A stretch of 31,428 nt of DNA. Source: a virus. The position numbers and the translations under genes are program-made. Shown in pieces: positions 2,517 to 21,141 of the stretch; positions within the stretch are counted from its first letter, which is position 1; every line of letters begins with the position of its first letter. The stretch lies in UHGV virus genome UHGV-0241329; one strand, given 5' to 3'. A model generated the notes under the pieces. The model made no database searches. It worked only from the letters and a program-made list of their open reading frames with translations, and was not told the DNA's origin.

Positions 2517-2689
2517 GAGGTTGTCCCGTATTCAGTGTCGCTGATTTGTATTGTCTGAAGTTGTTTTTACGTTAAGTTGATGCAGATCAATTAATATGAT
2601 ACCTGCGTCATAATTGATTATTTGACGTGGTTTGATGGCGTAGATGCACGTTGTGACATGCAGATGATAATTATTATCATTTTGCGGGT

Positions 2690-2900
2690 CCTTTCCGGCG
2701 ATCCGACAGGTTACGGGGCGGCGACCTCGCGGGTTTTCGCTATTTATGAAAATTTTCCGGTTTAAGGTGTTTCCGTTCTTCTTCGTCGTAACTTAATGTT
2801 TTTATTTAAAATACCCCCTGAAAAGAAAGGAAACGACAGGTGCTGAAAGCGAGCTTTTTGGCCTCTGTCGTTTCCTTTCTCTGTTTTTGTCCGTGGAATG
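2690..2900 (+). other. cos: Prophage cos site (cosQ-cosN-cosB); 12-nt cohesive end GGGCGGCGACCT at 2716..2727
   Basis: Sequence ...ATCCGACAGGTTACG/GGGCGGCGACCTCGCGGGTTTTCGCTATTTATGAAAATTTTCCGG... matches the recalled lambda cos ends; R-site-like motifs (CGTTTCC) continue up to Nu1. Confidence 0.9.
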
Positions 2901-2904
2901 AACA

Positions 2905-3424
2905 ATGGAAGTCAACAAAAAGCAGCTGGCTGACATTTTCGGTGCGAGTATCCGTACCATTCAGAACTGGCAGGAACAGGGAATGCCCGTTCTGCGAGGC
3001 GGTGGCAAGGGTAATGAGGTGCTTTATGACTCTGCCGCCGTCATAAAATGGTATGCCAAAAGGGATGCTGAAATTGAGAACGAAAAGCTGCGCCGGGAGG
3101 TTGAAGAACTGCGGCAGGCCAGCGAGGCAGATCTCCAGCCAGGGACTATTGAGTACGAACGCCATCGACTTACGCGTGCGCAGGCCGACGCACAGGAACT
3201 GAAGAATGCCAGAGACTCCGCTGAAGTGGTGGAAACCGCATTCTGTACTTTCGTGCTGTCGCGGATCGCAGGTGAAATTGCCAGTATTCTCGACGGGATC
3301 CCCCTGTCGGTGCAGCGGCGTTTTCCGGAACTGGAAAACCGACATGTTGATTTCCTGAAACGGGATATCATCAAAGCCATGAACAAAGCAGCCGCGCTGG
3401 ATGAACTGATACCGGGGTTGCTGA

Positions 3425-3450
<26 letters not shown>
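2905..3450 (+). CDS. Nu1: Terminase small subunit
   Basis: 181-aa ORF starting MEVNKKQLADIFGASIRTIQNWQEQGMPVLRGGGKGNEVLYD, recalled lambda gpNu1; directly downstream of cos. Confidence 0.95.
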
Positions 3451-7131
<3,681 letters not shown>

Positions 7132-8848: not shown

Positions 8849-9124
8849 ATGTCGATGTACACAACCGCCCAGCTGCTGGCGGCAAATGAGCAGAAATTTA
8901 AGTTTGATCCGCTGTTTCTGCGTCTCTTTTTCCGTGAGAGCTATCCCTTCACCACGGAGAAAGTCTATCTCTCACAAATTCCTGGACTGGTAAACATGGC
9001 GCTGTACGTTTCGCCAATTGTTTCCGGTGAGGTTATCCGTTCCCGTGGCGGCTCCACCTCTGAATTTACGCCGGGTTATGTCAAGCCGAAGCACTTAGCA
9101 TGGCTTTCTGAGGCTTTCGTGTAG
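8849..9124 (+). pseudogene. E: Major capsid protein E, 5' fragment (about 82 codons) truncated by the insertion and fused to 9 foreign codons (LAWLSEAFV)
   Basis: MSMYTTAQLLAANEQKFKFDPLFLRLFFRESYPFTTEKVYLSQIPGLVNMALYVSPIVSGEVIRSRGGSTSEFTPGYVKPKH matches recalled lambda gpE N-terminus, then diverges at 9094. Confidence 0.9.
9084..9093. repeat. attL core, AGCCGAAGCA (left copy of 10-bp direct repeat)
   Basis: Identical 10-mer at 9084..9093 and 20351..20360, exactly where lambda E homology stops and resumes. Confidence 0.8.
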
Positions 9125-9256: not shown

Positions 9257-10492
9257 ATGGCTGGCGAGAACAAACTGAGCGACAAAGCGCTTAAAGGATA
9301 TCTGGGGAAACCCAGAGAAAAGCAGATCACCATTGCTGATGGAAAGGGGCTTTCTATTCGTGTGAGTACTAAAGGGGCTGTGAGCTTTGTTTTCTTCTAC
9401 AGGTTAGCAGGTGGCCGGGCTGCTCCGGTCTGGCTAACGTTGGGTAAATATCCTGATATGTCACTCAAATAGGCAAGGGAAAAGCGCGACGAGTGCCGTG
9501 GTTGGTTGGTTGACAAACGTGATCCGCGTATCCAGATTAAGATTCAGGCTGAAGAACGCTTAAAGCCGGTCACAGTGGAGGATGCACTAAATTACTGGTA
9601 TGAAAATTACTGTAAGGTGCGTCGTAAAACTCATGCTGTAACGCTTGGCAGATTTCGAAAGCATATCTTTCCCTATATCGGTCATTTGCCCGTAAATGAC
9701 ACTCACCTATATGAATGGCTGGACTGTTTTGACCGAATTAAACGTAATGCACCAGTTATGGCGGCGTATGTTTTTTCTGACACTAAATTAGCTCTTCGTT
9801 TTTGTCGGGTACGCCAGTACGCGACGTGTGATGCTTTAAAGGATTTGCGCATGAGTGATGTGGGGCAGATTGCAGGTAAGCGGGATCGGGTTCTGGATGA
9901 AGCCGAACTGGGCCAGCTCTGGAAGGCAATTTTTGTCGAGCCTGATTTAAAACTAATGTCTGAATACACGCGAAAAATGTTTGTGCTTTGTACAGTATTT
10001 GGATGTCGAATGAGTGAAGCCCGATTATCTGAATGGAGCGAATGGGATCTCGAAAGTTGGGTTTGGACTGTACCAAAAGATCACTCAAAAACTGGTGTTG
10101 AAATCGTCAGACCAGTACCTGAAATTCTACGACAGTGGGTAACGGATGTTCACGAAGAGACAAAACATACTGGTTATGTGCTGGGAAGTCTGCGAATTAG
10201 AGAAAGCGTAAGCAAGATTGGGGGGAAAATCGGTAAACGTTTGGGCCATGAAAAACAATGGTCACTACACGACCTTAGAAGAACGCTATCTACTCATCTA
10301 AGTGATCTCGGTGTTGAATTTTATGTAGTAGAACAACTGTTAGGCCATGCGCTACCTGGCGTGGCAGGTGTTTACAACAGGAGTAAGTTTATGGCTAAAA
10401 AACTGGATGCTCTGGAACTCTGGACTACATATCTCAATAGCATCGCAGCTGCTGATTCAAAAGTGACAATCCTCAAACAAAAGGCTGGTTAA
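9257..10492 (+). pseudogene. int: Tyrosine integrase (P4-like family) interrupted by in-frame amber codon TAG at 9470..9472
   Basis: Two same-frame ORFs (9206..9472 and 9506..10492) separated only by TAG; N-terminal arm-binding-like domain; C-terminal catalytic motifs HDLRRT and LLGH..GVAGVYNRS. Confidence 0.8.
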
Positions 10493-10493
10493 C

Positions 10494-10721
10494 ATGAAAA
10501 AAATGGCAATTGTTGATAAAAAGGGTCTGGAGTACATTCCTAACATTGACCGAATGATCCGTGAGAAAGAATGTCGGGAGCTAACCACTCTTGCGAACAG
10601 CACACGCTGGAAGCTGGAGAAGGAAGGAAAATTTCCTAAGCGGATCAAGATTGGCGCTACTGCGGTAGCTTATCGTCTCTCCGAAGTTCAGGCATGGATT
10701 AAGGGAGAATGGAGTAATTAA
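10494..10721 (+). CDS. alpA: AlpA-family phage transcriptional regulator / excisionase-like HTH protein
   Basis: 75-aa ORF immediately after int; sequence resembles CP4-57 AlpA-type HTH proteins (LSEVQAWIKG-like C-terminus). Confidence 0.7.
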   Translation: MKKMAIVDKKGLEYIPNIDRMIREKECRELTTLANSTRWKLEKEGKFPKRIKIGATAVAYRLSEVQAWIKGEWSN

Positions 10722-10739: not shown

Positions 10740-11561
10740 ATGACAATGTGTGTTATTTGGAAGTCAGTTGATGGAACTATTTATGCCGCCACAGATTCTC
10801 GACTGAGCTTTGAAGAAAAAAAGTTAGATCGTTGCGTTAAAATATCCCGAATCACATGTCTTTTACATGAGCCTAGTGATGCAGTAGATACAAGTAAGAT
10901 ACTTGTTGATAAGCGTGAGATTGCTACATTATTCTGTGGAGGCTTTACAAATGCCTATATCATCAAGGAGAGCCTTACTGAGATTTTAAATAAAATAGTT
11001 CTCATGAGGGAATACTCCGGTGTGCCCTTTTCGGAAATTATAGATATAGCGTTTTCCATTTATGAAGATACATCAAGAGATATGTTTGCATCATTAATGG
11101 ACCAACGATTTGGATGTGTTTTTTACATGATAAGTTACTGCCCTGTATATAAGGAAATGCAAGCATTTAAATTTGAATTCAAAATAAATGAAAGCGGTAT
11201 TAACTATTATAAATCTAAACTTTTTGAAGATCGTAACTATGAGGTTAATGGAAGTGGGGTGAGGTACTTGGAACAAAATCATCGTATTGAAGATCTAGTT
11301 AAAGAAGCTTATCAGAAGAATAAATACACACCACTTCTAGATATACTTGAGTCCGTAATTAATGATGACGACTGTGACTCTGTTGGAGGTGCAATGCAAT
11401 ACATTTCATGTAATAAAGATAGTCTAAAATTGTGTTGTCATATGTTATTTGAAGAAAATAATTATAAGTATATGAAAGCTGGGGTGGACTTAAATGAACT
11501 CAATGAGAAGTTTATACCTTCTGGTTTGTTTTTTGAGACAGATGCAATCATCAAAAGATAA
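10740..11561 (+). CDS. Hypothetical protein, AT-rich cargo gene
   Basis: 273-aa ORF, visibly AT-rich; no motif recognised; N-terminus MTMCVIW... gives only a faint hint of an N-terminal Cys nucleophile. Confidence 0.55.
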   Translation: MTMCVIWKSVDGTIYAATDSRLSFEEKKLDRCVKISRITCLLHEPSDAVDTSKILVDKREIATLFCGGFTNAYIIKESLTEILNKIVLMREYSGVPFSEIIDIAFSIYEDTSRDMFASLMDQRFGCVFYMISYCPVYKEMQAFKFEFKINESGINYYKSKLFEDRNYEVNGSGVRYLEQNHRIEDLVKEAYQKNKYTPLLDILESVINDDDCDSVGGAMQYISCNKDSLKLCCHMLFEENNYKYMKAGVDLNELNEKFIPSGLFFETDAIIKR

Positions 11562-11964: not shown

Positions 11965-12321
11965 TCAATATTTAGGTGGTTCAACAAGAGCGTTTATCAT
12001 TGCTCTCAAATTATCGCGAACACTTATCCAAGTCTGTTCTGCTCGTTCTAACTCATTAGTGTACAGCTTTAATGTTTTATCTATGCCATATGTGGCTATT
12101 AAATTTATAGCTTCTTGTAACTTTTCGGGATTATTCCTTCTTGGGGGAGTGAATATACCGCGGATTTTTCCGGTAATTAAAGCTTTACGGTGTCTACATA
12201 GAATACCTTTACTTCCTGCTGGACAATTACAAGTCATGATTAGCGAGCCAGAATCGTTTGATACAGTGACTATGTATACATCCAAACTACTGCTACTTGT
12301 TGCGAAGAATTCGTATTTCAT
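11965..12321 (-). CDS. Small SWIM-type zinc-finger protein
   Basis: 118-aa ORF with CNC-x9-CRH (CxCx(n)CxH) motif; co-oriented 28 bp downstream of RHH gene. Confidence 0.55.
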   Translation of the reverse strand: MKYEFFATSSSSLDVYIVTVSNDSGSLIMTCNCPAGSKGILCRHRKALITGKIRGIFTPPRRNNPEKLQEAINLIATYGIDKTLKLYTNELERAEQTWISVRDNLRAMINALVEPPKY

Positions 12322-12348
12322 GTGTTAGCTCCTTGACTTCAATTATTC

Positions 12349-12543
12349 TTATCCTTTTGGTTCAATACCGCGCCGTAGCAGCTCTTTGCGCCCTAACTCT
12401 TTAAGCCAGTTGGCAAGGCTTACCCCATCGTTACTGGCTTCGTTATCAAACTGCTCCTTCAATTCAGGAACTATGCGCATATGGAACGGTGGGGCCTTTC
12501 CTGTGCCTTTTTGTTTTTTATCGCGCTTAATAACCGTTGACAT
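12349..12543 (-). CDS. Ribbon-helix-helix (Arc/CopG-like) DNA-binding protein, candidate element repressor
   Basis: 64-aa ORF; FHMRIVPELKEQF beta-strand followed by helices; start codon overlaps a palindromic operator. Confidence 0.5.
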   Translation of the reverse strand: MSTVIKRDKKQKGTGKAPPFHMRIVPELKEQFDNEASNDGVSLANWLKELGRKELLRRGIEPKG

Positions 12544-13106: not shown

Positions 13107-13394
13107 ATGAAAAATAAATTTTCTGGCTTTATTGCCAGCGGTCAAACTCATTCAAAAATCAGCCTTGGGGATATTTTCAAAGACAGCTATGGCTATCGGG
13201 TAAAGATTATTTCGGTTGATGATCGTCGTGTCTCTTATTTGCGTGATGGTTATGATTTTGAATGTGTTATGCCGCGTCAGCAGTTCGAAAGAGATTTCAT
13301 TCTGGTAAAAAATTGCAAGACAGATAATCAGAGGCGTGCCGCAGGCTATATCCGTAAAATTCGGGCAATGTTAGTTGCCGGAGGTAACAAATGA
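13107..13394 (+). CDS. Hypothetical small protein
   Basis: 95-aa ORF; 3' end overlaps primase start (ATGA). Confidence 0.45.
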   Translation: MKNKFSGFIASGQTHSKISLGDIFKDSYGYRVKIISVDDRRVSYLRDGYDFECVMPRQQFERDFILVKNCKTDNQRRAAGYIRKIRAMLVAGGNK

Positions 13395-15211
13395 AACGTG
13401 CTCCGAACTTAAAATACCAACCGCGCGACAAAATGACGGAAGTCATCATTTTTGCTGGCAGTGATGCCTGGAGCCATGCAAAAGAATGGAATGAATGGGC
13501 AGGTAAGCATATTGCAGCAGATGATACACCACCAGTCATTCTGGGTACGGAACAACTGGAAAACCTGGATGATATGCAAATTATCGATGAAGGCCGTCAT
13601 TATGTGCGTGTTTATCGTGCCGGAAAGATTGCAGAGAAAAGTCTGACGAAGGTTGCGACATTACTTGCTATTGCAGGCGTAAAGGAAGCACGTTGTTACC
13701 GTAGCTTTGTTGATCGAGAGCCTGAAGACTGGACTCCGCGCCTTGTCGGCCTAAAAGCTGAAGCGGAGCATGGGGAAAGTCTGGTGATTGAACTGCCAGT
13801 GAAGAAGGCAGAGCGCAAAAATGACGAGCGTGCTTCATCTTTGGCGTTGAATCAGATGGGGGCCAGCCAGCGCGGTGAAGTTCTCCTTGCACATTACGGC
13901 GGTGAACTGGCAATCAATGCCGACTCTGACACCGTTCATCATTACAACGGCGTTGTATGGGAGCCGGTTCAGGATAAAGAGTTACAGCGTTCTATGGCGC
14001 AGATTTTCATTGATGCGGAGATCAGCTATTCGCAGAACGCTATTAAATCGGCGGTAGATACCATGAAGTTAAGTTTGCCTGTAATGGGGAATACAGCCCG
14101 TAACCTGATTGGATTCAGTAACGGGGTATTTGATACCAGAACTGGTAATTTTCGGGAGCATAACAAAAACGACTGGTTGTTAATTGCCAGTGAATTACCT
14201 TTCAGCCCACCAGCAGAGGGGGAAACGCTGGCAACACATGCGCCGAATTTCTGGAAGTGGTTGCGCCGTTCGGTGGCTGAGAATGACCGCAAGGCAGATC
14301 GCGTACTGGCGGCATTATTCATGGTGCTGGCGAACCGGTACGACTGGCAGTTATTCATTGAGGTAACAGGGCCGGGGGGAAGTGGTAAAAGTGTGATGGC
14401 GGAGATTTGCACCATGCTGGCGGGTAAGGCTAATACAGTATCAGCAAGCATGAAGGCGCTGGAAGATGCAAGGGAACGTGCGTTAGTGGTTGGCTTTTCG
14501 CTGATTATCATGCCGGATATGACCCGCTACGCTGGTGATGGGGCAGGGATTAAGGCCATTACAGGCGGTGACAAGGTGGCAATTGACCCGAAACACAAAG
14601 CCCCCTATTCAACGCGTATTCCGGCAGTAGTGCTGGCGGTTAACAATAACGCCATGTCATTCAGTGACCGCAGCGGGGGGATCTCACGTCGTCGGGTGAT
14701 ATTCAATTTTTCGGAAGTTGTACCGGAGAACGAACGCGATTCGATGCTGGCGGAAAAAATAGAAGGTGAGCTGGCGGTAGTGATTCGTCATCTGCTTACA
14801 AGGTTTGCTGATCAGGACGAAGCCAGACGCCTGTTATATGAGCAGCAGAAATCTGAAGAAGCACTGGCGATAAAGCGAGAGGGGGATTCGCTGGTGGACT
14901 TCTGCGGTTATCTCATGGCATCGGTAATGTGTGATGGCCTGTTAGTGGGTAATGCTGAAATTGTGCCATTCAGCCCACGCAGGTATCTCTATCATGCCTA
15001 TCTGGCTTATATGAGGGCACATGGGTTTGGTAAACCTGTAACACTGACGCGCTTCGGTAAAGATATGCCGGGGGCAATGGCGGAATATGGCAGGGAGTAT
15101 ATGAAACGGAAAACGAAGCACGGTTTGCGTTCAAACGTGACACTGACGGAGGAATCAGAAGACTGGATGCCATCATGTGTATCGGTCACTAATGACGATA
15201 GCAAAAATTAA
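13391..15211 (+). CDS. Primase-helicase replication protein (P4 alpha / PICI Pri-Rep-like)
   Basis: 606-aa ORF; Walker A EVTGPGGSGKS in C-terminal half; followed directly by iteron origin. Confidence 0.75.
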   Translation: MKRAPNLKYQPRDKMTEVIIFAGSDAWSHAKEWNEWAGKHIAADDTPPVILGTEQLENLDDMQIIDEGRHYVRVYRAGKIAEKSLTKVATLLAIAGVKEARCYRSFVDREPEDWTPRLVGLKAEAEHGESLVIELPVKKAERKNDERASSLALNQMGASQRGEVLLAHYGGELAINADSDTVHHYNGVVWEPVQDKELQRSMAQIFIDAEISYSQNAIKSAVDTMKLSLPVMGNTARNLIGFSNGVFDTRTGNFREHNKNDWLLIASELPFSPPAEGETLATHAPNFWKWLRRSVAENDRKADRVLAALFMVLANRYDWQLFIEVTGPGGSGKSVMAEICTMLAGKANTVSASMKALEDARERALVVGFSLIIMPDMTRYAGDGAGIKAITGGDKVAIDPKHKAPYSTRIPAVVLAVNNNAMSFSDRSGGISRRRVIFNFSEVVPENERDSMLAEKIEGELAVVIRHLLTRFADQDEARRLLYEQQKSEEALAIKREGDSLVDFCGYLMASVMCDGLLVGNAEIVPFSPRRYLYHAYLAYMRAHGFGKPVTLTRFGKDMPGAMAEYGREYMKRKTKHGLRSNVTLTEESEDWMPSCVSVTNDDSKN

Positions 15212-15498: not shown

Positions 15499-15744
15499 AT
15501 GACAGCGAAGCACACAAAAAAATCACAATCGCACGCCCTTGATTTGACGGAACACTGGTTAAGGGTGTCGATAAAAATCATCGACCGCAACGCCGGGGAA
15601 GGATACGCGAAAGCACATCCCGAACTGATTAGCGCATTCATGACAACGGCGGCTGCAAACTTTGCCACTCTGACCGAACGGGAGATTGCTGAAGCGGAGG
15701 AAGTGACAACAATCAATATTAAGTCCGGAGAGCAGGCAGCATGA
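15499..15744 (+). CDS. Hypothetical protein
   Basis: 81-aa ORF between ori and ssb; ATGA overlap with ssb. Confidence 0.45.
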   Translation: MTAKHTKKSQSHALDLTEHWLRVSIKIIDRNAGEGYAKAHPELISAFMTTAAANFATLTEREIAEAEEVTTINIKSGEQAA

Positions 15745-16190
15745 CGGCGCAAATATCAGTTTACGGGCGGTTGGTGGACGACCCGCAGACAAAACAGACC
15801 AGCAAGAGCACCCCCATGACGCTGGCACGTATGGCGGTATCACTGCCCTGCAGTCAGTCGGATGACGGTCAGGCGACGATGTGGTTATCTGTCCTGGCGT
15901 TTGGCAGACAAGCCGACGCGCTGGCAAAGCATCACAAAGGCGAACTCCTGAGCGTGGCGGGTAATATGCAGGTGAGCCAGTGGACTGGACAGAACGGTGA
16001 AACGCGGCAGGGCTGGCAGGTTATCGCAGACAGCGTAATCAGTGCGCGAACGGTGCGACCGGGCGGCAAAAAAGGTCAACAGGGTCAGGCTACTGACGCA
16101 CTGAACAGAGCAAAACAACAGGCAGATCAGCAAGGAAGCCATCCACCAGTGGGAGATAATGAGCAATGGGGAGATGATATTCCGTTTTAA
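15741..16190 (+). CDS. ssb: Single-stranded DNA-binding protein
   Basis: 149-aa ORF; Gly/Gln-rich linker and acidic C-terminal tail ...GDDIPF, typical of SSB. Confidence 0.8.
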   Translation: MTAQISVYGRLVDDPQTKQTSKSTPMTLARMAVSLPCSQSDDGQATMWLSVLAFGRQADALAKHHKGELLSVAGNMQVSQWTGQNGETRQGWQVIADSVISARTVRPGGKKGQQGQATDALNRAKQQADQQGSHPPVGDNEQWGDDIPF

Positions 16191-16402: not shown

Positions 16403-17449
16403 ATGCGTATGGTTGATTTATATTCGCCTACCCAGCTTGTACAGGTGGTTAATGCTGTAGATGTACAAAAACAACTAAATGCGTTGTTTACCAGTTTGTT
16501 TTTTACTCGCTCGGTAATGTTTGAATCGCGCGATATTATTCTTGATACAATCGACGATCCAAATATCCCAATTGCAGCGTTTTGTTCTCCTATGGTGGGT
16601 AGTAAAGTTTCACGTGACGAAGGGTACGAATCAAAAACAATTCGTCCAGGCTATATGAAGCCGAAAAGCAGCATTGATCCAAATAAGTTAGCTGTGCGCC
16701 CTGCTGGTGTATCACCTGAGCAATACAATGCTTTTGGAGCGCGTAATATTAAAGTTAAACAGGCGATTGTAAATCAGGCTAAAGCTATTCGTGCACGTAT
16801 TGAATGGCTTGCCGTTCAGGCAATCACAACGGGGAAAAATATCATTGAGGGCGATGGTATTGAACGTTATGAGCTGGACTGGAATATTAAACCACAAAAT
16901 ATCATCACTCAGTCTGGCGGTGCTGAGTGGTCAGGTAAGGATAAAGAAACTTTTGATCCAAATGATGATATTGAGAGCTACGCAGAATTTAGTGAGGGCG
17001 TCACTAATATCATCATTATGGGCGGTAATGTATGGAAGAAATACCGTTCATTCAGAGCGATAAAAGAGGCTCTGGATACCCGTCGTGGTTCTAATTCCGA
17101 ACTGGAAACGGCCCTTAAAGACCTTGGTGATTCGGTGAGTTTTAAAGGGTATATGGGCGATGTTGCGATTGTTGTATACAGCGGGCGTTATACCGATGAG
17201 GACGGAACTGAAAAACATTTCCTTGATCCTGATTTGATGGTGCTTGGCAATACAGCTCTTCAGGGGATTGTCGCCTATGGCGGTATTCAGGATCCGGAGC
17301 TAATCCGAATGGGGCTGACTAAAGCCGAACTTGCACCGAAAAACTATATTGTGCCTGGTGATCCGGCTATTGAATATGTGCAGACACATTCAGCACCACA
17401 GCCAATACCGGCCCGCATCAATCGTTTTGTTACCGTTCGCATTGGCTAA
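16403..17449 (+). CDS. Major capsid protein, divergent homolog of lambda gpE, encoded by the element
   Basis: Aligns along its length with lambda gpE, e.g. ITQSGGAEWSGKDKETFDPNDDIESYA vs ITQSGGTEWSKRDKSTYDPTDDIEAYA, and LDTRRGSNSELETA identical; start uncertain among ATG 16388/16403/16409. Confidence 0.8.
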   Translation: MRMVDLYSPTQLVQVVNAVDVQKQLNALFTSLFFTRSVMFESRDIILDTIDDPNIPIAAFCSPMVGSKVSRDEGYESKTIRPGYMKPKSSIDPNKLAVRPAGVSPEQYNAFGARNIKVKQAIVNQAKAIRARIEWLAVQAITTGKNIIEGDGIERYELDWNIKPQNIITQSGGAEWSGKDKETFDPNDDIESYAEFSEGVTNIIIMGGNVWKKYRSFRAIKEALDTRRGSNSELETALKDLGDSVSFKGYMGDVAIVVYSGRYTDEDGTEKHFLDPDLMVLGNTALQGIVAYGGIQDPELIRMGLTKAELAPKNYIVPGDPAIEYVQTHSAPQPIPARINRFVTVRIG

Positions 17450-17458
17450 GGGGGAGCA

Positions 17459-17800
17459 ATGGCTACTCATTACACTGAACTCATGGCTGGCACTGAAGCA
17501 CTGGTGACTACGCTGGGGATATTTTCAGCTAATAAAGGGGTAATTCCTGCATTTACGCCACTGATGCAGGAAGATGCAACAGGTGCACTGGTGGTATGGG
17601 ATGGTTCGAGCGTAGGTAAAGCGGTTTATGTTTCCGCTGTACAAATCGACACCGCGAAAAAAACACAGGCTCAGGTCTATAAGACAGGTGTCTTAAATGT
17701 TGATGCTCTGAACTGGCCTGAGTCTGTAAAAGAACTGTCAGTAAAGATTGCAGCGTTTGTTGGCTCAGGTATTTCTGTTCAGCCGCTGGCTCGTGTGTAA
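17459..17800 (+). CDS. Head decoration protein, divergent homolog of lambda gpD
   Basis: 113 aa; LVVWDGSSVGKAVYVSAVQ...KTGVLNVDALNWPE...AAFVGSGISV parallels lambda gp[20 protein letters not shown]...[14 protein letters not shown]...[11 protein letters not shown]. Confidence 0.65.
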   Translation: MATHYTELMAGTEALVTTLGIFSANKGVIPAFTPLMQEDATGALVVWDGSSVGKAVYVSAVQIDTAKKTQAQVYKTGVLNVDALNWPESVKELSVKIAAFVGSGISVQPLARV

Positions 17801-17811
17801 AGGGGGATACA

Positions 17812-18195
17812 ATGCAGAATGATTACAATGACCTTAAGCCAATTGCCGAAATGATGTACCCGAATCCAGCTGTAGAGGAATTAAAAGCTATCGCTGACAA
17901 AATGTGTTTAAGCGAGCGCCTTGTTGATATGAATCAGGTGATGGAAATTACAACCCTGAGTCGGCGTACACTGCTAAACCTTGAGGCTAGTGGAGAGTTC
18001 CCGGAGCGTGTGCAGGTTACGGAAGGGCGTAAGGCCTGGTATTTAAGTGAAGTGATCGACTGGATAAATAATATTCCTCGCGCTTCTGAATATTGCCGCG
18101 TACCTGTCCCAAAAAAGCCAGATGCGGCGCTATGCCTCAAGATTGAGCGTGTACGCCGCAATGCACGGGATGGTCGCTATAAGCTGATTGGTTGA
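17812..18195 (+). CDS. HTH protein (AlpA-like DNA-binding segment) immediately upstream of element cos
   Basis: 127 aa; segment MNQVMEITTLSRRTLLNLEASGEFPERVQVTEGRKAWYLSEVIDWINN resembles AlpA/MerR-type HTH. Confidence 0.5.
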   Translation: MQNDYNDLKPIAEMMYPNPAVEELKAIADKMCLSERLVDMNQVMEITTLSRRTLLNLEASGEFPERVQVTEGRKAWYLSEVIDWINNIPRASEYCRVPVPKKPDAALCLKIERVRRNARDGRYKLIG

Positions 18196-18214
18196 TGAAA
18201 TTAGGGCCCGCTCT

Positions 18215-18425
18215 GGCTGGCGGGTCCTTTCTGGCGATCTGACAGGCTACGGGGCGTCAGGCGCGCAGATTCTTGCTATTTATGACAATTTTCTGCGATT
18301 TGCCGTTTCCGTTCTTCTTCCTCGTAACTTAGTGTTTTTATTAGAAATACCCTCTAAAAAGAAAGGAAATGACAGGTGCTGAAAACAGGCTTTTGGGTCT
18401 CCGTCATTTCCTTTCTCATTTTTAT
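18215..18425 (+). other. cos: Element cos site, homologous to prophage cos but with divergent cohesive-end sequence GGGCGTCAGGCG (18252..18263)
   Basis: Aligns with 2690..2900: cosQ-like GCGGGTCCTTTCTGGCGATCTGACAGGCTACG and cosB-like GTTTCCGTTCTTCTTC / AAAGAAAGGAAATGACAGGTGCTGAAA conserved; cohesive-end 12-mer differs at 5 of 12 positions. Confidence 0.8.
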
Positions 18426-18679: not shown

Positions 18680-19996
18680 TTATCTTGAAGAAATTTTAGG
18701 CAGGCTTTTTAAAAATAAATCTTTATTTCTACTTGCATCAGTTAAAAGTGTTAGGAATATTTTATCTGTAGGAGTGCATGTGCTCTTGTTTAACAGTAAT
18801 TCACCAAGTTTCTGTAATCGAGAGAATTGCCCATCCTCTTGGATTCTGTGACGAAGTGTACTATCATTTTTAATAACATCAACAAATGCAGAAACCATGT
18901 TAATATCAAAGTGTTCAAACATTTCCAATATTAAAGGTGCAGCCCCATTTGAATAAAAATTCTTCCTTCCATACTGATAGCTGAAACCACGATGGCCAAC
19001 ATAAGTTTTTGTAATGGCTGAAACAAATTCAACAATATTATCTTCAGGGACGAAACTCGAGAATGGTAATAATTGGGTTACGATTTTTTCCTCTTCTGAC
19101 CAATTATCTAAAGACTCGGTGAGTTTATTAATGAGAGGCTCAATAATAACTTTTCGGGATGCAGGGCTAATATACATCAGTCCATCTACCAATAGTATGA
19201 ATTGTTGTGCCTTCTCTATCTTATTGTTGTTTCCTGAAACTAAATACTTGTCAAATTGTTGGCCGACTTTACGTCGGTCGTCTTTTGAAAGTAATGTCCA
19301 TAAAATAGGTGCGCAAAATTCAATGTTGTTTCTGAGTTCACTTGATATATTGGATGAGCAGTATGTGCCAAAAAAACGAGAGGATAATTCACTGATATAA
19401 ATTGCAGGTAGATCTGAAAAGGCTTGCTTAACTGCCAGGCTATTTTTATTAAATGTTGCCGAATCCATTTCTGAAAGATATGTAGATATATCTATGATGG
19501 CTGGTGGAAACTCTTTAGAAAGAACGTATTTATTACAATCATTAATCAGGTTCACTACTTTGATTAAATCAGGGTCGCTACTTTGTGGATGTCCACCAAA
19601 TAGATTCCTGGTTTCTCTAGCTTGTTGTAATAGTTTCTGACCTTCTCGATCGATAACTCCTATTTTAAATGCTCCATCTATTAAATCAAAGTCGCTCACA
19701 TAATCCTGAAAATCTTCATACGTTTTAATTTCTTTTTTTTGTTTACACTCTTTGTTGAATAGATCTAGGCTACGATGAATTATCTTTTGACGTAAATCAT
19801 CAACTACAGCATTCCAGTAAGCAGTGATGGCACTTCTATAACCTTTTACAGGAAGAACTCTTATTGCTTCTGAAATATATGGGCAGTCAACTACATCATG
19901 CCTCACAGTTGAGAGCGCAGTTTGTAACAATGTAACTTCTGTAGAGTCTAGTGGAGTTGGCTGCACTAAATGAGAACTTATCTCTGTACCCTTCAT
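18680..19996 (-). CDS. Hypothetical protein, AT-rich cargo gene at attR end
   Basis: 438-aa ORF on reverse strand, visibly AT-rich; no motif recognised; hairpin AGGCGTGAT-N8-ATCACGCCT at 18649..18674 just 3' of it. Confidence 0.55.
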   Translation of the reverse strand: MKGTEISSHLVQPTPLDSTEVTLLQTALSTVRHDVVDCPYISEAIRVLPVKGYRSAITAYWNAVVDDLRQKIIHRSLDLFNKECKQKKEIKTYEDFQDYVSDFDLIDGAFKIGVIDREGQKLLQQARETRNLFGGHPQSSDPDLIKVVNLINDCNKYVLSKEFPPAIIDISTYLSEMDSATFNKNSLAVKQAFSDLPAIYISELSSRFFGTYCSSNISSELRNNIEFCAPILWTLLSKDDRRKVGQQFDKYLVSGNNNKIEKAQQFILLVDGLMYISPASRKVIIEPLINKLTESLDNWSEEEKIVTQLLPFSSFVPEDNIVEFVSAITKTYVGHRGFSYQYGRKNFYSNGAAPLILEMFEHFDINMVSAFVDVIKNDSTLRHRIQEDGQFSRLQKLGELLLNKSTCTPTDKIFLTLLTDASRNKDLFLKSLPKISSR

Positions 19997-20350: not shown

Positions 20351-20360
20351 AGCCGAAGCA
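20351..20360. repeat. attR core, AGCCGAAGCA (right copy of 10-bp direct repeat)
   Basis: Identical to 9084..9093; lambda E homology resumes here. Confidence 0.8.
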
Positions 20361-21141
20361 TGAGGTGAATCCGCAGATGACCCTGCGTCGCCTGCCGGAT
20401 GAAGATCCGCAGAATCTGGCGGACCCGGCTTACCGCCGCCGTCGCATCATCCTGCAGAACATGCGTGACGAAGAGCTGGCCATTGCTCAGGTCGAAGAGA
20501 TGCAGGCAGTTTCTGCCGTGCTCAAGGGCAAATACACCATGACCGGTGAAGCCTTCGATCCGGTTGAGGTGGATATGGGCCGCAGTGCGGCGAACAACAT
20601 CACGCAGTCCGGCGGCACGGAGTGGAGCAAGCGTGACAAGTCCACGTATGACCCGACCGACGATATCGAAGCCTACGCGCTGAACGCCAGCGGCGTGGTG
20701 AATATCATCGTGTTTGATCCGAAAGGCTGGGCGCTGTTCCGTTCCTTCAAAGCCGTCAAGGAGAAGCTGGATACCCGTCGCGGCTCTAATTCCGAGCTGG
20801 AGACAGCGGTAAAAGACCTGGGCGAAGCGGTGTCCTATAAGGGGATGTATGGCGATACGGCGATCGTCGTGTATTCCGGACAGTACGTGGAAAACGACGT
20901 CAAAAAGAACTTCCTGCCGGACAACACGATGGTGCTGGGGAACACTCAGGCACGCGGTCTGCGCACCTATGGCTGCATTCAGGATGCGGACGCACAGCGC
21001 GAAGGTATTAACGCCTCTGCCCGCTACCCGAAAAACTGGGTGACCACCGGCGATCCGGCGCGTGAGTTCACCATGATTCAGTCAGCACCGCTGATGCTGC
21101 TGGCTGATCCTGATGCGTTCGTGTCCGTACAACTGGCGTAA
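20353..21141 (+). pseudogene. E: Major capsid protein E, 3' fragment (from codon about 80) lacking its native start
   Basis: PKHEVNPQMTLRRLPDEDPQNLADPAYRRRR...VSVQLA matches recalled lambda gpE C-terminal 260 aa; in-frame TAG at 20350..20352 immediately upstream. Confidence 0.9.

Follow-up and report, generated by a model that had tools for sequence, protein, structure and literature searches.

The stretch of viral DNA analyzed here (UHGV virus genome UHGV-0241329; 31,428 nucleotides, hereafter the window) covers the late region of a lambda-like prophage, the helper, whose capsid gene E is interrupted by a satellite element. We found that this satellite contains a second cos site (cos2; 18220..18423, plus strand) with the full lambda architecture in the lambda register, namely cosQ, a staggered 12-bp cosN, and a cosB arranged R3-I1-R2-R1. 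Judged by its sequence, the satellite is a helper-embedded phage-inducible chromosomal island (PICI) of the published E:Phage_cap_E:80, or '11capE', type. We consider it likely that cos2 is the packaging site of this PICI, and that its variant overhang is a tolerated allele and a lineage marker, not a discrimination device. An earlier note on this DNA had placed a second lambda-type cos within a mobile element at 18215-18425, with its recognition subsites conserved, and had read the different cohesive end as consistent with packaging discrimination. The coordinates proved accurate, both motifs it quoted are present, and the second site was recovered by alignment and by a repeat finder; the discrimination claim fared differently, as discussed below.

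The helper cos (2684..2887, plus strand) is near-identical to lambda cos, with cosQ, a cosN carrying GGGCGGCGACCT at 2716-2727, and a cosB of the order R3-I1-R2-R1. Pairwise alignment of both cos regions confirmed their homology from cosQ through R1: 2684-2887 and 18220-18423 form a direct repeat of 204 nt and 82% identity, which the repeat finder ranks as the longest within the window. Over lambda positions -32 to +166, the two sites align without gaps at 163/198 positions (82%), while identity is 11/48 (23%) directly upstream of this block and 35/94 (37%) directly downstream. Because identity drops so sharply outside these positions, the homology starts at cosQ and stops at R1, which are the functional limits of lambda cos.

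Within cos2, comparison in the lambda register allowed each subsite to be assigned. The cosQ heptamer GGGTCCT (18222..18228, plus strand) is identical to that of the helper and to lambda 48473-48479, and lies approximately 17 bp upstream of cosN, the same distance as in lambda. The predicted 12-nt cohesive end, GGGCGTCAGGCG, occupies 18252..18263 (plus strand), with the nick positions taken from the lambda register. The R3 core CGTTTCCGTTCTT (18304..18316, plus strand) is identical to lambda bp 53-65, and its spacing from cosN is the same as in the helper and in lambda, with zero indels. It is followed by the I1 interval between R3 and R2 (18317..18351, plus strand), a predicted binding site for integration host factor (IHF) that is identical to that of the helper at 30/34 positions, by the inverted R2 (18360..18375, minus strand), and by R1 (18403..18416, plus strand), where the homology to the phage cos stops. 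R2 and R1 have one substitution each, in both cases at the counterpart of R3 bp 54, and thus outside bp 55-63, the segment of R3 that contacts the small terminase (PMC9026076).

The terminase that would act on such a site is encoded by the helper itself. The prophage late region comprises lysis genes, cos, Nu1, gpA, W, portal, protease, D and tail genes. Its small terminase Nu1 (2905..3450, plus strand; Pfam Phage_Nu1, 4.5e-100) is 98.9% identical to lambda Nu1, with 2 substitutions relative to NC_001416, and its large terminase gpA (3425..5350, plus strand; Pfam GpA_ATPase and GpA_nuclease) is 99.7% identical to lambda gpA. As cos2 has the helper's own cosB type, helper Nu1 should bind it as it does the helper cos. 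The proposal that the element is built for packaging by a lambda-type terminase is plausible, given the conserved recognition subsites, the enzyme in question being that of the helper. The window has no Nu1 small terminase gene after cos2, and no plus-strand open reading frame (ORF) follows the site. The main value of these observations is one of clarification, in that the satellite has a complete lambda-type cos that a lambda-identical helper terminase should read directly.

To place cos2 among its relatives, these were gathered in three ways: by the variant overhang motif, by the neighboring AlpA gene, and from complete E. coli genomes. The first scan of IMG/VR was selected on the variant motif itself and was circular, so it was replaced by a sample anchored on the neighboring AlpA gene. 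All counts come from related genomes, and neither columns nor genomes are independent. The cosQ heptamer was the same in 48 of the 49 distinct satellite sequences. Among the 25 distinct satellite cos sequences of lambda type, no column varied in cosQ, in the flanking CG dinucleotides or in the overhang, and few varied in R3 (2/13), R2 (1/16) or R1 (3/15), as compared with 34-48% of the spacer columns and 89% of those beyond R1. Overall, 6/67 subsite columns were variable against 52/123 spacer columns (Fisher p = 1e-6). Moreover, downstream replacements in relatives are of many kinds, and all start after R1. Since the subsites are conserved among 25 distinct relatives while the spacers vary, cos2 looks functional, the pattern being the one expected of a site kept in working order.

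These data bear on a different reading, in which cos2 is a non-functional relic, that is, a captured phage cos with the start of Nu1, decaying and without any packaging role. The published model, in which PICI late genes were captured from helpers, is compatible with such an origin. In addition, the Nu1-family small terminase (TerS) genes found after cos in relatives are often truncated or have internal stops, the window is devoid of any terS, the satellite integrase is broken in the window copy and the capsid gene in the closely related ET665 copy, and no virions were detected for the type element (PMC10111431). Nevertheless, the homology block stops exactly at the functional limits of cos, the subsites are conserved whereas the spacers and the sequence after R1 are diverged or replaced, and the spacing between cosN and R3 is preserved. 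Furthermore, mobilization of a PICI that lacks a terminase depends on a cos, and the related EcCICFT073 needs its cos for transfer. Overall, we regard the relic reading as very unlikely.

We then turned to the overhang itself. As claimed earlier, the cos2 cohesive end GGGCGTCAGGCG differs from the helper GGGCGGCGACCT at 5/12 positions (7/12 identical), these being bp 6, 8, 9, 10 and 12, and the ends of the satellite would consequently not be complementary to those of the window helper. The nick context ACG|GGGCGTCAGGCG|CGC nonetheless retains G1-G5, C11 and both flanking CG dinucleotides. Work on lambda has shown that mutations at cosN bp 7-12 have minimal effect and that left-half changes are harmful; G2C cuts the yield ten-fold, whereas the symmetric C11G has no effect (PMC4669245). 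The same study reported that the lambda large terminase (TerL) nicks right-half cosN variants efficiently, that the lambda and N15 terminases show no cosN specificity, and that cosQ and the flanking CGs are conserved among natural alleles (PMC4669245). In natural cosN alleles, most changes affect the right half, and the left half and flanking CG are conserved (PMC4669245; PMC12315714). Packaging specificity lies in cosB and TerS, and cos2 shares its cosB type with the helper; moreover, phages with the variant end exist, as do sister satellites with the canonical one. The step from a different sticky end to packaging discrimination is, in conclusion, not supported, and we read GGGCGTCAGGCG as a tolerated natural allele. 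The same applies to a role in cos cleavage for the 127-aa helix-turn-helix (HTH) protein encoded next to cos2: nothing was found in support of it, and by sequence the protein is an AlpA-family regulator.

The change at bp 6 (G6T) raises the question of which phages serve as helpers. It is conceivable that the resident terminase is inefficient on cos2, owing to G6T together with the right-half changes, and that the real helpers are rare phages with a co-adapted enzyme. Lambdoid phages with the same overhang do exist: four prophages with phage-type flanks bear GGGCGTCAGGCG (L047, L013, L058 and L022), and their terminase is 98-99% identical to that of the window helper. L047 is collinear with the window helper from cos to an intact E gene (6.4 kb, 97.5%), and its gpA, 99.1% identical, has 6 residues that differ from the window enzyme, including two within the nuclease domain; G6T, moreover, is a left-half change, and the left half is reported to be under selection. 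However, all six substitutions in gpA are conservative, Nu1 is 98% identical, G6T recurs in natural alleles of other genera (GGGCGTCGACCT and, probably, GGGCGTAAGACG), and no position lies farther from both nicks than bp 6. Furthermore, in 7/7 E-site composites examined a variant satellite sits in a canonical-overhang helper, and the satellites have therefore arrived and persist there. Dependence on co-adapted helpers is thus highly improbable.

The distribution of the allele was then examined more broadly. In the AlpA-anchored sample, cosN is polymorphic, with 49 variant and approximately 30 canonical loci, and with GGGCGGAAGGCG and GGGCGGCTGACG seen at one locus each; every overhang allele found retains G1-G5, C11 and the flanking CGs. 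The variant GGGCGTCAGGCG occurs in 51 satellite as opposed to 3-4 phage contexts (51/57 of its IMG/VR occurrences are in satellites), while the sampled sites with the canonical overhang (at least 120) are mostly from phages among the matches listed. Satellites with a lambda-type cosB have the variant in 41/41 loci, representing 25 distinct sequences, and in four further spot checks. A synthetic query combining the satellite flank, the canonical overhang and the lambda R3 had no near-exact match in 5,426 complete genomes; its best full-length match there (95.7%) was the variant allele, even though the sequence is mosaic on both sides of the overhang. The allele is thus carried mainly by satellites, and by every one of those with a lambda-type cosB.

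Such figures could be taken to mean that a non-helper overhang is adaptive, kept by selection in satellites that share the helper cosB and lie 15.5 kb in cis from the helper cos. Molecules with one helper and one satellite cos end could not cyclize, satellite and helper DNAs could not anneal to each other, and the two replicons would be kept separate, or an end-compatibility group would be formed; in fact, a mismatch at 2/12 positions already drops the yield about four-fold (PMC4669245). The 7/7 composites, the 41/41 loci, the missing canonical counterpart despite mosaic flanks, and the skew towards satellite contexts all agree with it. If true, the cohesive-end sequence would encode insulation or compatibility between a parasite and its host phage. 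On the other hand, cosN is not a determinant of packaging specificity in lambda-like phages, and helper-type phages with the variant exist. Sister satellites inserted in the helper portal gene have the canonical overhang within canonical helpers (2/2 composites and 11/11 IMG/VR loci), and three E-site satellites are canonical as well. Moreover, the selective benefit of incompatible ends is unclear, because hybrids between the helper cos and cos2 would in any case be defective for the satellite, matching ends or not. A founder effect can give the same counts: as the late modules of the satellites are almost clonal (95-100% identity), the simplest account of the association is that the cosN-cosB module was co-inherited from rare variant phages. 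We therefore judge an adaptive overhang to be unlikely.

Based on these results, we favor a tolerated overhang on a packaging site that the helper machinery would use as follows. After induction, the satellite would excise and then replicate to concatemers, on which helper Nu1 and IHF would bind R3, R2 and R1, and position gpA. The latter would nick the top strand at 18251/18252 and the bottom strand at 18263/18264, which would produce 5' overhangs GGGCGTCAGGCG. Packaging would proceed rightward from cos, taking in the cargo, attP and int, and then the remaining genes up to the capsid and AlpA genes, and would end at a later cosQ-cosN. Four satellite units amount to 45,068 bp (92.9% of lambda), and would fill a lambda-sized head, as for EcCICFT073; small heads built by the E-like and D-like proteins of the satellite are conceivable instead. 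The variant overhang and the cosN-cosB module would most simply have been inherited together from rare lambdoid phages bearing the same allele.

Several points weigh against this proposal. Cleavage and packaging at cos2 are what we infer, and virions of the type strain were not detected by Tommasini et al. (PMC10111431). G6T falls within cosN's left half, reported to be under selection (PMC4669245), and outside the half with documented tolerance. The strict association between the variant and the lambda-type cosB, in spite of recombination in the flanks, is not predicted by pure neutrality. Recombination with phage cos sites, on which selection acts too, could account for part of the subsite conservation, and the counts rest on related genomes, not on independent events. 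In addition, the integrase of the window copy is broken by an amber codon. Finally, the satellite late module was found in none of the deposited phage records, and a metagenome scan with a 17-nt GC-rich pattern, aimed at cosN-ended contigs or excised forms, gave none with a cosQ context among the matches listed. In the deposited phage records, the best match reached at most 84.5% for cos2, and at most 96.9% for the variant phage-type cos. A sequence of 11,268 bp (L365) was considered as an excised satellite, but its length proved to be a coincidence.

Regarding the satellite as a whole, it forms an insert of 11,267 bp, of lower GC content, in helper gene E, with the 8-bp core CCGAAGCA at both borders. 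The left core (attL, 9086..9093, plus strand) is the sole 8-mer common to both junctions, and the collinearity with L047 stops at 9093; the right core (attR, 20353..20360, plus strand) was located by comparison of the junctions. In ET665, the same base differs in attL (window position 9088) and in attR (20355), so that the core reads CCCAAGCA there and CCGAAGCA here. The insertion splits gene E into an N-terminal fragment (8849..9093, plus strand; Pfam Phage_cap_E positions 1-78), annotated as a partial capsid gene in ET665, and a C-terminal fragment (20353..21141, plus strand; Phage_cap_E positions 94-328). The satellite int, alpA, replication, capsid, decoration and second AlpA genes are all co-oriented with the helper late operon, and the order of four zones was found, namely integration, variable/Bro, replication (primase and single-stranded DNA-binding protein, SSB) and late (capsid), with the tyrosine integrase and AlpA at the upstream end, reading inward; this layout agrees with the published one (PMC10111431).

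The integrase gene (9257..10492, plus strand), identified by the Pfam domains Phage_integrase and Arm-DNA-bind_3, by its translation and by comparison with the related locus L001, is interrupted by an in-frame amber codon (TAG, 9470-9472), which is Gln72 (CAG) in the 99.9%-identical ET665 copy. Self-excision of the window satellite is therefore doubtful, and this copy would probably be unable to excise alone. In the ET665 copy, it is the satellite capsid gene that is interrupted by a stop (window 16802, G versus T), and each of the two near-identical copies has its own inactivating mutation. Next to the integrase in the integration zone is a first AlpA-family regulator (10494..10721, plus strand; ET665 annotation). 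A second variable slot lies right after it (10740-11561), occupied here by a 273-aa ORF with no family match, and by TIR, DUF2971 or Bro-N genes in relatives. Two small ORFs of the variable zone follow on the minus strand (11965-12543); the annotation of relatives gives a SWIM zinc-finger protein and a HicB-like antitoxin, and the first of the two has a weak PADLOC match to PDC-S62 (1e-4). The replication zone encodes a primase/helicase (13391..15211, plus strand; D5_N, DUF5906 and Pox_D5) and an SSB (15741..16190, plus strand; domain search).

In the late zone, an E-like major capsid protein (16409..17449, plus strand; Pfam Phage_cap_E, 2.4e-41; tblastn; PHROG 29), 44-50% identical to helper E, is followed by a D-like head decoration protein (17459..17800, plus strand; Pfam HDPD), 38% identical to helper D, and by the second AlpA-family HTH protein of 127 aa (17812..18195, plus strand; Pfam Phage_AlpA; AlpA of PDB 8c3t, 2e-9; PHROG 2790). 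The gene for the latter is always directly upstream of the satellite cos, and is 95-100% conserved in 80 loci. The protein was also considered as a factor of the TerS or Rpp kind, and this was dismissed, as its only matches are to AlpA and excisionase proteins, with no similarity to RppA; neither did BLASTP detect similarity to the 137-aa protein encoded at the same position in EcCICFT073. The invariant, satellite-specific left flank of cos2 (18204-18229) could pair with cosQ in a stem of 10 bp (-18.8 kcal/mol) that precedes UUUCU. A weak late-operon terminator was considered for this hairpin and set aside, since it scored no better than shuffled controls (z = -1.8). A promoter and terminator scan around cos2 revealed nothing exceeding expectation, and an Rfam scan of the window gave zero matches. 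Between cos2 and attR lies a variable slot with a 438-aa cargo ORF (18680..19996, minus strand; PHROG 27609, unknown function), for which no Pfam, PADLOC or NCBIfam match was obtained. In relatives, the slot is filled by TIR, DUF262 plus HEPN, Abi, DUF2971 or restriction-endonuclease genes, and the 438-aa ORF is a candidate for an uncharacterized anti-phage gene.

The DNA immediately 3' of cos also differs among relatives, being occupied by a Nu1-family TerS gene, a 34%-identical TerS gene, truncated terS remnants, or no terS. The Nu1-family gene directly follows cos in, for example, L002 (18009-18560) and L144 (18307-18849). In one type of relative TerS, the N-terminal portion of approximately 105 aa is near-identical to lambda Nu1, and the C-terminal portion of approximately 75 aa, the gpA-binding end, is diverged; the other type, 34% identical, goes with a cosB that is entirely different. 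Truncations or stops are frequent in these genes, and in the window the gene is lost altogether. The same late module of capsid, decoration, 127-aa AlpA and cos is found in the helper portal gene B in L144 and L148, with a different integrase and the canonical overhang. In E. coli S1bESBLb (L146), a satellite with a lambda-type cosB and a pseudogenized lambda-type terS resides in a helper whose cosB is of the phage-21 type, which indicates that the packaging specificities of satellite and helper are not always matched.

The earlier note missed that the element belongs to a published type, for which cos homology to the helper has already been noted; a second cos is thus already known in kind. 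The type element, 11capE of E. coli NRG857c, is a PICI within gene E of a lambdoid helper, termed a "helper-embedded PICI" by Tommasini, Mageeney and Williams (2023, PMC10111431), who reported 201 instances at the E:Phage_cap_E:80 site. They showed excision and replication of 11capE but detected no virions, described a 258-bp, 90% cos-like sequence common to 11capE and its helper, and presumed that the helper packages the element through cos (PMC10111431). A difference in cosN or in the cohesive ends is absent from the text and supplements of that paper, and no later experimental work on helper-embedded PICIs was found in the literature. In addition, GGGCGTCAGGCG as a cos end was not found in searchable text, although the survey of natural alleles by Vahanian et al. 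(2017) may list it. The overhang allele GGGCGTCAGGCG, including its change at bp 6, and its association with the lambda-type cosB in satellites are therefore small new details. As the helper terminase is 99% lambda, any role of the sticky end beyond cyclization could be tested by standard lambda assays, which could also reveal whether helper-embedded PICIs are packaged, so far presumed.

The element of NRG857c (Eco567.11capE) shares with the window satellite the insertion point in gene E, the order int, alpA, variable zone, pri, ssb, E-like, D-like, second AlpA, cos and cargo, and an identical 127-aa AlpA (WP_001178671.1); its overhang is also variant and that of its helper canonical. The differences are in the cargo, which is DUF262 plus HEPN in NRG857c versus the 438-aa ORF here, in the att identity block (10 bp in NRG857c (PMC10111431) versus 8 bp), and in the amber integrase, the single R2 and R1 substitutions and the lack of a Nu1 remnant after cos, all three particular to the window satellite.

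EcCICFT073 (Fillol-Salom et al. 2018, 2019), the model for Gram-negative cos PICIs with Rpp, has the same capsid, decoration and cos layout. Lambda and phi80 package it as DNA of phage length, with its cos needed for transfer, and its capsid/decoration pair is dispensable for interference (PMC6092414); packaging specificity is set by cosB and TerS and, in this PICI, by Rpp (PMC6739421). The two elements have in common the order int-alpA-pri-ssb-capsid-decoration-cos, lambda-like cosQ and cosN, a unit of approximately 11 kb and no terminase of their own, EcCICFT073 being mobilized by a lambda-type helper terminase. However, EcCICFT073 is chromosomal whereas the window satellite is helper-embedded, and the overhang is canonical at both of its cos sites; since that of its helper (phage 4) is canonical as well, EcCICFT073 could not serve as proof that lambda cuts the variant. 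Moreover, its cosB lacks R sites and is recognized by a heterodimer of Rpp and TerS, whereas cos2 has the lambda R3, R2 and R1 and no Rpp: no plus-strand ORF follows cos2 in the window, and the TerS-like protein of the family has no BLASTP similarity to RppA. Direct reading of cos2 by the helper terminase would thus contrast with the Rpp-redirected cos of this model PICI.

With respect to lambda cos, cos2 has the same cosQ heptamer, the same cosQ-cosN and cosN-R3 spacing, the 12-bp stagger, GGGCG, the flanking CG, and the same order and orientation of R3-I1-R2-R1, and differs at overhang bp 6, 8, 9, 10 and 12, by one change each in R2 and R1, and by the lack of Nu1 thereafter. Among natural phage alleles, those of N15 and phiD326 differ at bp 9 and 12, that of Gifsy-1 at bp 8, 9 and 11, and mEp213/LLS have GGGCGGCGCGCT, so that the cos2 allele has five changes, including bp 6, versus two or three in these phages. 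Finally, cos SaPIs (Staphylococcus aureus pathogenicity islands) of the SaPIbov5 type likewise combine a copy of the helper cos with a homolog of the helper capsid protein (Ccm). These are Gram-positive elements with another terminase system, in which small capsids made with Ccm have been demonstrated.

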